Source of the DNA: a virus
Length of the DNA: 20,723 nt
UHGV virus genome: UHGV-0278151
Direction: 5' to 3' (one strand)
The notes below the pieces were generated by a model. The model made no database searches and was not told the DNA's origin. It worked only from the letters and a program-made list of their open reading frames with translations. Below, one piece after another: positions 13,649-18,066 of this stretch (positions are counted from its first letter, which is position 1; every line of letters begins with the position of its first letter). Position numbers and translations under genes: made by a program.

Positions 13649-13760
13649 GTCCGACATGAAAGTGTCCGAAAATGACTTTTTCAGGCGTTTTCATGTCGGA
13701 CCTTTTACGGATTCGATATTAGAAAAAACAAATAGTTATGTTCGAGAAGTACCGACATGA
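13649..13760 (-). promoter_or_regulatory. cosB-like region: three CATGTCGG(A/T)C repeats, presumed small-terminase binding sites
   Basis: Plus strand has gtCCGACATGAa at 13649-13660, tTCATGTCGGacc at 13690-13702 (inverted) and gtaCCGACATGAt at 13749-13760. They lie between cosN and the Nu1 start, where lambda has R3-I1-R2-R1. The motif differs from the lambda CGTTTCC-type R sites. Confidence 0.7.
13726..13738 (+). promoter_or_regulatory. Possible IHF site (I1 analogue) between cosB repeats
   Basis: AAACAAATAGTTA follows an A-tract. It has one mismatch to WATCAANNNNTTR and sits between the outer and middle repeats, like lambda I1. Confidence 0.35.
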
Positions 13761-14164: not shown

Positions 14165-14203
14165 CATTACAGCAACCCCTTAGAGTGAAGGGCTGCTGTA
14201 ATG
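14165..14203. other. Long imperfect hairpin (10 bp + 5 bp stem, 6-nt loop) with no adjacent U-tract
   Basis: cattacagca-ac-ccctt agagtg aaggg-c-tgctgtaatg. Neither strand has a T-run immediately 3' of it, so it is not a canonical intrinsic terminator. Confidence 0.6.
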
Positions 14204-14228: not shown

Positions 14229-14537
14229 TTACGGTAATTTCATGAAGGCAAATACCGGACAGCCCGGATGACGAGCATCTTCTGTTGCTTCCAGCATTGA
14301 CTCACCAAACCACTCCGTCGTGGCGCGACCGTCAGCTGCTTTGTAGTGGATCAAGTACTGGTTTTCGCCATCCGCATACTGCGCACGGGCTTTAACCTCA
14401 CCCCATTCATCACTGATGCGCATCTCCACCAGTTGAGACAACTCAAACTTAAACGGAGCAGCATCAGCACCAATTACAATCGGTTTGTTTTCTGTTTTTC
14501 CATCATCGTCTCCTGATATCGAAGCCCGTCGCCGCAC
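14229..14537 (-). CDS. Hypothetical protein, start unresolved (probable frameshift relative to its own SD and ATG)
   Basis: The open frame ...KTENKPIVIGADAAPFKFELSQLVEMRISDEWGEVKARAQYADGENQYLIHYKAADGRATTEWFGESMLEATEDARHPGCPVFAFMKLP has no family I recognise. The only strong SD (AGGAGA, 14509-14514) serves ATG ATG at 14506-14501, which is in a different frame and stops after 10 codons. Confidence 0.5.
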   Translation of the reverse strand: MRRRASISGDDDGKTENKPIVIGADAAPFKFELSQLVEMRISDEWGEVKARAQYADGENQYLIHYKAADGRATTEWFGESMLEATEDARHPGCPVFAFMKLP

Positions 14538-14677
14538 CGGGCACTGATCAACATTTGAGTATTCGCGGCGACAGAAAGAATTTATTTTATTGAATAGCCA
14601 CTAACACAGAATTTCATGCTTTCCGGACGCTGGCGCGCCCTTCATTTTTCAGCAAAATATTCCGCTATTACAGATGA

Positions 14678-14860
14678 TCAGTTCTGCAGACACTGCCGAA
14701 CGCCATCGATAAGCTGGCAGACCTGAGAAGCCGTATCGAAAAGCTGGCGCGCCTTATCCAGGCTGACGCATCCCACCAATAAAAAAGGCACCAGTATCGC
14801 TACCAGTGCCCATTTCGCCGCCGTTCGCGGCATTCTGTGTGTCCAGTGTTTTCTGCTCAT
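14678..14860 (-). CDS. Small lipoprotein at the end of the lysis cassette (60 aa; spanin-slot protein of unknown type)
   Basis: MSRKHWTHRMPRTAAKWALVAILVPFLLVGCVSLDKARQLFDTASQVCQLIDGVRQCLQN. It has a basic N-region, a hydrophobic core and a lipobox L-V-G-C. AGGTG lies 5 nt upstream of the ATG at 14860. The mature peptide is about 29 aa with 3 Cys. Confidence 0.7.
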   Translation of the reverse strand: MSRKHWTHRMPRTAAKWALVAILVPFLLVGCVSLDKARQLFDTASQVCQLIDGVRQCLQN

Positions 14861-15915: not shown

Positions 15916-15930
15916 ACTTTTTCTCCTGTA

Positions 15931-17242: not shown

Positions 17243-17318
<76 letters not shown>

Positions 17319-17664: not shown

Positions 17665-18066
17665 TTATCGATACAGATAAGCCATCCCTATCCCGTGCAA
17701 TACCGCCCGTTTAATATTCTCAAACTCATCTTCCGCAATCATAGGAACAATATAATTTCGTCCCTCCCAGGTTCTGGTTTTTATGCGATCCAGTCGGCTC
17801 AATGAAACCGTCATCAACATGTCACATTTTACCCAGCAAGTAATATGCTCATTACCAGGTATGGGGTTTTCTGATAACTCATGATGGCAATCTCTGCGAG
17901 GGAGCGGTTCAGTAGTGCTTATTGGTACCACTGTTACCAATTGATTGTTGTGCCTGTTTCTGGACACGACCACCACTGGCCTGACCTTGACTATTTCCGG
18001 AACAACCATTCCCCGAAAATCACACATTAAAACAGAACGAACAGACGGCTGATACTTTAATACCAT
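17665..18066 (-). CDS. PemK/MazF-fold toxin-like protein (YifN-like), with no adjacent antitoxin gene
   Basis: 133 aa from the ATG at 18066: MVLKYQPSVRSVLMCDFRGMVVPEIVKVRPVVVVSRNRHNNQLVTVVPISTTEPLPRRDCHHEL...WVKCDMLMTVSLSRLDRIK. This is the MazF/PemK signature (G/S-x-L-x-x-DF ... E-x-x-K-x-RP-x-VV-S ... V-x-VVP-x-ST ... D-x-x-x-TV). The SD is weak (AAGAGA). Confidence 0.7.
   Translation of the reverse strand: MVLKYQPSVRSVLMCDFRGMVVPEIVKVRPVVVVSRNRHNNQLVTVVPISTTEPLPRRDCHHELSENPIPGNEHITCWVKCDMLMTVSLSRLDRIKTRTWEGRNYIVPMIAEDEFENIKRAVLHGIGMAYLYR

Follow-up and report, generated by a model that had tools for sequence, protein, structure and literature searches.

The copy of a small late-operon gene in a prophage of Escherichia coli SE11 is, with a probability of roughly 85 %, an ordinary frameshift pseudogene: a 1-nt deletion at a homopolymer hotspot would have cut the body of a dispensable prophage gene off from its own start. 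The window, i.e., the whole stretch of DNA analysed (20,723 nt, virus genome UHGV-0278151), is 100 % identical to NC_011415.1 of this strain (window position x corresponds to record position x + 1751477). It represents a largely intact, lambdoid, phiP27-like prophage, sharing ~96 % DNA identity with the Stx2e phage phiP27 at the gene locus. The late operon encodes, in this order, the Q antiterminator, a MazF-like toxin, TerB, DUF3927, two holins, an M15 endolysin and a 60-aa lipoprotein-like ORF, followed by the gene in question, a member of the phrog_1935 family. Located 3' of the latter are cos, the genes for the small and large terminase subunits and the portal gene.

Direct reading of the minus strand, on which all elements of the gene are located, agrees with the layout given in a preliminary description of this DNA. 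A Shine-Dalgarno sequence (AGGAGA, 14509..14514), unchanged in all aligned relatives, is followed by two consecutive ATG codons (14506-14504 and 14503-14501) and by a run of five A (A5, 14495..14499). The zero frame yields only the mini-ORF MMEKQKTNRL* (14474..14506), which stops after 10 codons at TAA 14476-14474 and represents a frameshift product restricted to A5 alleles. The disrupted gene body (GKTENKPIVIG...FAFMKLP*, 14229..14501, ~90 codons) lies in the -1 frame. This long frame is open from GTG 14537 to TAA 14231-14229 (102 aa), contains ...GKTENKPIVIGADAAPFKFELSQLVEMRISDEWGEV... and also spells ...GKTENKPIVIGADAAPFKFELSQLVEMRISDEWGEVKARAQYADGENQYLIHYKAADGRATTEWFGESMLEATEDARHPGCPVFAFMKLP. 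As proposed earlier, addition of a single A to the A5 run fuses the ATG to the long frame, giving MMEKTENKPIVIG... (92 aa). The peptide MEKTENKPIVIGADAAPFK may serve as a proteomic marker of the gene product.

When aligned with the SE11 gene, phiP27 and five prophages of E. coli all have one base more in the run, which reads AAACAA in phiP27, AAAAGA in STEC711 and A6 in the other four. An extended alignment comprising nine relatives matches base for base, the difference being exactly one base in the run. The SE11 copy thus differs from intact, conserved orthologs by an indel of a length not divisible by 3. Among them is gene L33 of phiP27 (CAC83551.1), which belongs to phrog_1935, has the same position (lysis cassette, gene, cos, terminase) and ~96 % DNA identity, but is in frame (AAACAA) and equipped with the long C-terminus; its annotated length of 115 aa results from a start placed too far upstream. 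Among roughly 100 related copies, about 90 % are in frame from the same ATG, their run being either A6 or equally long but interrupted. This outcome of the suggested comparison of A6 versus A5 in related prophages favours the recent frameshift pseudogene, one of four possibilities considered in the preliminary description. Orthologs combining A5 with another start, named there as evidence to the contrary, were not found, and the frame is conserved. With the -1 frame representing a conserved family and its relatives being one base apart in the run, sequence comparison places the frameshift far beyond chance. Among the A6 copies found, none matches the SE11 haplotype exactly and the closest one shows 12 differences; we therefore infer the ancestral run length of this haplotype.

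Choice of the start codon affects the length of the ancestral product. The second ATG (14503) is probably the true start, since (i) its spacing from the GGAG core of the Shine-Dalgarno sequence is 6 nt, compared to 3 nt for the first ATG, (ii) the PGAP start of intact relatives (proteins of 97–130 aa) is at the position equivalent to 14503, and (iii) the second Met matches position 1 of the phrog_1935 profile. The fused protein would accordingly comprise 91 aa rather than 92, and the in-frame gene of the relatives encodes proteins of 91–130 aa from the second ATG. The first ATG (14506) was rejected as start, being too close to the Shine-Dalgarno sequence and disfavoured by the annotations and the PHROG profile. 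Likewise rejected was GTG 14537 as start of the 102-aa protein; it is located inside a hairpin arm, has no Shine-Dalgarno sequence, and the relatives start at ATG.

In the proposed course of events, the ancestral gene would have been translated from the AGGAGA ribosome-binding site and the start at 14503 (ATG GAA AAA ACA GAA..., MEKTENK...), until replication slippage took one A out of the A6 run. Ribosomes loading at this site would now produce a peptide of 9–10 residues ending at TAA 14476-14474, leaving the ~90-codon body without a start. Within this dispensable gene, no site would mutate more readily than the A run, at which related prophages have repeatedly and independently lost or gained 1 base. 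Trace amounts of full-length protein could still arise from an unprogrammed -1 slip of tRNA-Lys on A-AAA (restoring MEKTENK...) or from internal reinitiation.

The C-terminus of the SE11 copy is shortened as well. Where the majority allele has GAA and stops 7 codons later (14210-14208), the SE11 gene has an early TAA stop (14229..14231). The same short C-terminus is found in STEC711 (PGAP: C-terminus missing), in the intact 91-aa protein P0039 and also at locus L103. Given its occurrence together with an intact N-terminus, the shortened form is a standing allele.

Homopolymer length errors are frequent with some sequencing technologies, and the A5 and A7 calls in draft-derived IMG/VR contigs (L062, L077, L078, L035 and L044) could be of this kind. 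That the A5 of SE11 itself is a sequencing or assembly error, hiding a true A6 and an intact gene, has a next to negligible probability. Four complete genomes, i.e., SE11 and the independently sequenced strains EC21Z-048, EC71 and NCCP 15734, share exactly the same 88-mer including the A5 run, which provides independent sequence support for the indel. Moreover, A6 and A7 runs in essential genes at the same loci are almost invariant, so that errors are not pervasive. Because the four genomes have the whole ~400-nt haplotype in common, yet carry different terminase small-subunit genes downstream, i.e., different packaging modules, the A5 allele is to be regarded as real, heritable and old enough for recombination into different phage backbones. 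The sequencing error considered in the preliminary description is thereby refuted.

Run lengths were counted in three collections. Exact k-mer searches retrieved 4 records with A5, about 66 with A6 and 6 with A7 from complete E. coli genomes; the respective counts are 4, 69 and 3 for IMG/VR contigs, and all metagenome contigs have A6 (18/18; none with A5 or A7). At the fetched loci (7 with A5, 91 with A6, 4 with A7), the run deviates in 11/102. Haplotypes were defined on 408 nt after exclusion of the tract. A5 is associated with hap1 and hap6, which are unrelated to each other, while A7 occurs on hap8 and also on a 408-nt background identical to that of 16 A6 copies. At least four independent run-length changes are implied by these distributions (at least two backgrounds for A5 and at least two for A7). 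Haplotypes are otherwise fixed for a single length; for example, hap1 has A5 in 4/4 strains, originating from Japan, China and Korea.

A second prophage of SE11 (locus L011:3001-3360; NC_011415.1 2146660-2147020) contains the same gene, which differs from the window copy by 1 SNP and has A7. For this copy (A7 region, record 2146931-2147020), PGAP calls a 64-aa remnant (WP_001222765.1). Hence, neither SE11 copy is in frame, and the two are shifted oppositely (A5, -1; A7, +1). Such a pair would be slightly surprising if the run evolved purely neutrally, and might point to selection for an OFF state or to switching.

As a control, length variation was determined at the same loci for every homopolymer of at least 5 bases between 13640 and 16000. 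Most variable were the run at 15918-22 in the spacer between Shine-Dalgarno sequence and ATG of the first holin gene (5 bases at 22 loci, 6 at 17, 7 at one) and the non-coding run at 15958-62 (5 bases at 8 loci, 6 at 9, 7 at 2); a further non-coding run (13677-81) has 5 bases at 2 loci and 6 at 12. Coding runs of the lysis genes vary at 2/41 (15212-18), 1/62 (15464-70) and 0/55 loci (15330-35). Two nearby T6 runs are less variable (14017-22, 0/44; 14151-56, 1/43) than that of the phrog_1935 gene (14495-99, 11/102). Overall, the proportion of deviating loci lies between 0/44 or 1/43 and 18/40 or 11/19 for non-coding runs, and between 0/55 and 6/89 for coding runs. The variability of the run at 14495-99 is thus intermediate, as expected for the most mutable site of a weakly selected accessory gene. 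Many other database copies of the gene are independently broken elsewhere (e.g., P0050, P0064, P0072, P0075 and P0076), which is consistent with the way in which dispensable prophage genes commonly decay.

More generally, A/T runs of 5–7 nt, including that in the holin spacer, are polymorphic across these lambdoid prophages, frequently so where they are non-coding and seldom within essential genes. The length polymorphism of the latter A run (15918-15922, minus strand, ACAGGAGAAAAAGTATG) alters the spacing of the ribosome-binding site and could tune holin translation and the timing of lysis.

The same data bear on whether the run acts as a phase-variable contingency switch, slipped-strand mispairing turning the gene on (A6) or off (A5, A7) within the prophage population. 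A5, A6 and A7 do occur on identical or near-identical backgrounds, and the recurrent changes, the excess over the two nearby T6 runs and the joint presence of A5 and A7 in one genome would suit such a switch. As in contingency loci of Neisseria, Haemophilus and Campylobacter, a mononucleotide run in the 5' coding region sets the frame and varies in length between close strains. However, known homopolymeric contingency tracts typically comprise 8 or more bases, whereas the present one has 5–7; furthermore, it is not kept across the family, being interrupted in phiP27 (AAACAA) and STEC711 (AAAAGA) amid variable N-terminal codons (METTENK, MEKKEDK and MGKTENK are among the N-termini found). In addition, the ON length prevails (~90 % of copies), each haplotype is essentially single-length (A5 in all four hap1 strains), and similar polymorphism is found at ordinary non-coding runs of the same prophages. 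Slippage-based switching, another of the possibilities raised in the preliminary description, therefore appears quite unlikely and gains no support here. If it did apply, the two copies of SE11 would represent alternative OFF states (A5 and A7), explained by a cost of expression in this host.

One may also consider that the A5 allele is expressed by recoding, at a low set level, via a -1 frameshift of tRNA-Lys on A-AAA-C at codon 4 or via transcriptional slippage. If the P-site tRNA slipped by -1 on GAA-AAA, the exact ancestral protein would be restored, the zero frame stops soon (at codon 11), and AGGAGA is located 10–11 nt 5' of the slip codon as a possible helper like that of dnaX. The A-rich run of lysine codons, the -1 direction and the Shine-Dalgarno-like element ~10 nt upstream resemble the programmed sites of dnaX (A AAA AAG), IS911/IS3 (A AAA AAG) and lambda (G-GT G GGA AAG). 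In contrast to these, SE11 has no X XXY YYZ tandem-slippery heptamer in the zero frame (codons GAA AAA CAG), so that only a single P-site slip would be possible, and the 10-residue product of the zero frame is meaningless. A stimulatory structure is not apparent in the 75 nt 3' of the slip site (-17.6 kcal/mol, z = -1.12, with 27/200 shuffles folding equally well). The two-frame layout is limited to a few near-identical haplotypes and absent from the diverged orthologs phiP27 and STEC711, which have no uninterrupted run; unlike in programmed systems, orthologs of the present family are plainly in frame (~90 % of copies). Moreover, the sister A7 allele would require a +1 shift, so that no single mechanism fits both SE11 copies, and a run of five A is too short for appreciable slippage of RNA polymerase. 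Recoding, also proposed in the preliminary description, is therefore extremely unlikely.

A different question is whether an N-truncated product functions in the SE11 lineage. PGAP annotates only a 64-aa CDS at this locus (WP_001222766.1, 14229..14423, minus strand, from an internal ATG at 14423); a 70-aa product could start from TTG 14441. Such CDSs are called by PGAP, many distant relatives are stand-alone proteins of 57–65 aa, and a GGTGGAG motif is located 5' of the internal ATG. However, the GGAG abuts this ATG with essentially no spacer, and the stand-alone relatives start with an F-x-F-x-L motif (F17/F19/L21, with F17 and L21 nearly invariant) that is absent from both the 64- and the 70-aa form; the 64-aa form additionally lacks the first β-strand (residues 23–27 of the model described below). 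A functional truncated product is accordingly very unlikely. Because the start is lost and products of internal starts would not contain the conserved N-terminal core motif, function of the SE11 copy is presumably lost.

Decay by a homopolymer indel thus remains the preferred reading. With frameshift pseudogenes of this type, the SE11 gene shares the loss of a single base in a short coding A run, the ORF cut from its start, an inherited allele, a recurrent hotspot and a dispensable gene of which other copies are broken otherwise. There is no essential difference, the only oddity being the second SE11 copy shifted the other way (A7). Such decay of a prophage gene is a routine event, and its value lies mainly in annotation, where the SE11 locus and the A7 copy in the second prophage deserve the label of frameshifted pseudogenes, derived from a 91–98-aa gene, instead of that of 64-aa hypothetical proteins.

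The -1 frame represents a real, conserved gene, because it shows a pN/pS of about 0.26 (48 intact haplotypes), a match of the reconstructed protein to phrog_1935 (E = 3e-55 to 2.5e-69), homologs in Salmonella and Yersinia and a confidently predicted fold. The preliminary description had not recognised the protein. In total, 79 homologous clusters were found in E. coli, Shigella, Salmonella and Yersinia. A profile search against 1.84 billion representatives retrieved 638 clusters with a common core of ~57 aa (F-x-F-x-L...S-E-G-V-RAEY..ENQYLI-Y-AADGR...WW-ES-L), which is frequently stand-alone (proteins of 57–65 aa). Scans of the reconstructed and intact proteins against Pfam and NCBIfam assigned no family (Pfam: nothing at E ≤ 1), Pfam scans of distant relatives returned nothing relevant, and a search of PDB sequences with the family profile produced only noise. 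Likewise, nothing on the phrog_1935 gene was found in the literature on SE11 prophages and phiP27.

Following a suggestion in the preliminary description, the structure of the reconstructed protein was predicted. AlphaFold with an alignment of 116 sequences, replacing a shallower one (33 sequences) with unusable results (pLDDT 47), yielded a model with a pLDDT of 90.3 and a pTM of 0.75. The model shows a five-stranded SH3-like barrel (strands 23–27, 33–40, 48–54, 60–66 and 70–72) preceded by 15 flexible N-terminal residues. In Foldseek searches against PDB and BFVD, no match reached E ≤ 0.001, and generic small barrels and uncharacterised phage proteins were returned; the top rank is taken by 5ycq (E = 3.6e-3), the E. 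coli heat-shock protein HspQ, a Lon specificity-enhancing factor with a YccV-like domain. Alignment of the family profile with HspQ (sequence identical to 5ycq_A) by hhalign gave a probability of 50 % and an E-value of 1.6e-4 over 70 aligned columns, with the conserved motifs aligned. At the sequence level, no match to PF08755 was obtained in Pfam (E ≤ 1), and the family profile misses 5ycq among PDB sequences. The phrog_1935 protein is therefore predicted to form an SH3-like β-barrel closest to HspQ/YccV. By analogy with HspQ, a role as small adaptor or binder, e.g., of Lon, may be considered as a lead rather than a finding. The predicted structure thus provides the family with a testable functional lead. 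One may further speculate that a low-frequency switch combined with leaky ribosomal slippage acts on an HspQ-like β-barrel gene modulating a host factor such as Lon; this combination seems improbable to the same degree as the switch itself.

The architecture of the family is variable. Many relatives have a 130-aa form (L003:1648-2040 and other hap0 loci) with an extra C-terminal module of ~33 aa matching phrog_8025, which is inserted before the last codons, pointing to a modular C-terminus. The distant relatives P0080 and P0087 contain the ~57-aa core twice in tandem.

The 8-bp GC stem reported just upstream of the Shine-Dalgarno sequence exists as described (14528..14572, minus strand), with the arms GTCGCCGC/GCGGCGAC at 14572-14565 and 14535-14528 and a 29-nt loop; RNAfold extends the stem to ~11 pairs (G-U allowed). 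It is, however, unexceptional: with a minimum seed of 8 nt within 45 nt, the window contains 83 inverted repeats, and this hairpin does not rank in the top 25 by length. The hairpin-bearing segment of 111 nt is no more stable than its shuffles (z = +0.42), and no U-tract follows the hairpin. A scan for promoters and terminators between 13600 and 15300 found no promoter-like site and did not call the hairpin a terminator, and Rfam, applied to the whole window, reported nothing at the gene locus. Across loci, stem substitutions comprise transitions preserving G-U pairs as well as uncompensated changes (G to T at 3 loci, T to A at 2, G to A at 1), and no compensatory pairs were found. At 16 loci (including L018, L062 and L082), Shine-Dalgarno sequence, ATG and gene are located behind unrelated upstream sequence, and the hairpin is absent. 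On account of its frequency, its folding energy, the missing covariation and these 16 gene-bearing loci, the hairpin was rejected as a regulatory element; it is probably incidental, with no demonstrable link to the gene. At the same 16 loci the sequence switches ~18 nt before the ATG, marking a recombination junction at the ribosome-binding site.

Two further inverted repeats are located on the other side of the gene. That at 14165-14203 (14-nt arms, 93 % complementary, 11-nt loop) lies ~26 nt 3' of the gene stop and is conserved in relatives; having no U-tract on either strand, it does not represent a canonical terminator. The longest inverted repeat of the window (13649-13701; 24-nt arms, 83 % complementary, 5-nt spacer) adjoins the upstream side of the start of the terminase small-subunit gene (13641), where cos is annotated in phiP27, and is probably part of the cos/terminase-binding region.

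The 60-aa ORF (14678-14860, minus strand) directly after the M15 endolysin gene encodes a lipobox-like LLVGC and may represent an o-spanin or a unimolecular spanin-like lysis accessory. Its coding sequence contains a T6 run (14781-14786), which is T7 in 6/89 related loci, and a terminator-like hairpin with T-run (14811-14786). A tRNA model of Rfam matches 17254-17311 on the minus strand (48.5 bits, model positions 8–63 of 71) in the absence of calls by ARAGORN and RefSeq; a tRNA-Gly is annotated at the corresponding site of the second SE11 prophage, and the match probably represents a degraded phage tRNA. Finally, a gene for a PemK/MazF-family toxin (17665-18066, minus strand), with no adjacent annotated antitoxin, is located between Q and the lysis cassette, at the 'moron' position held by stx in phiP27.
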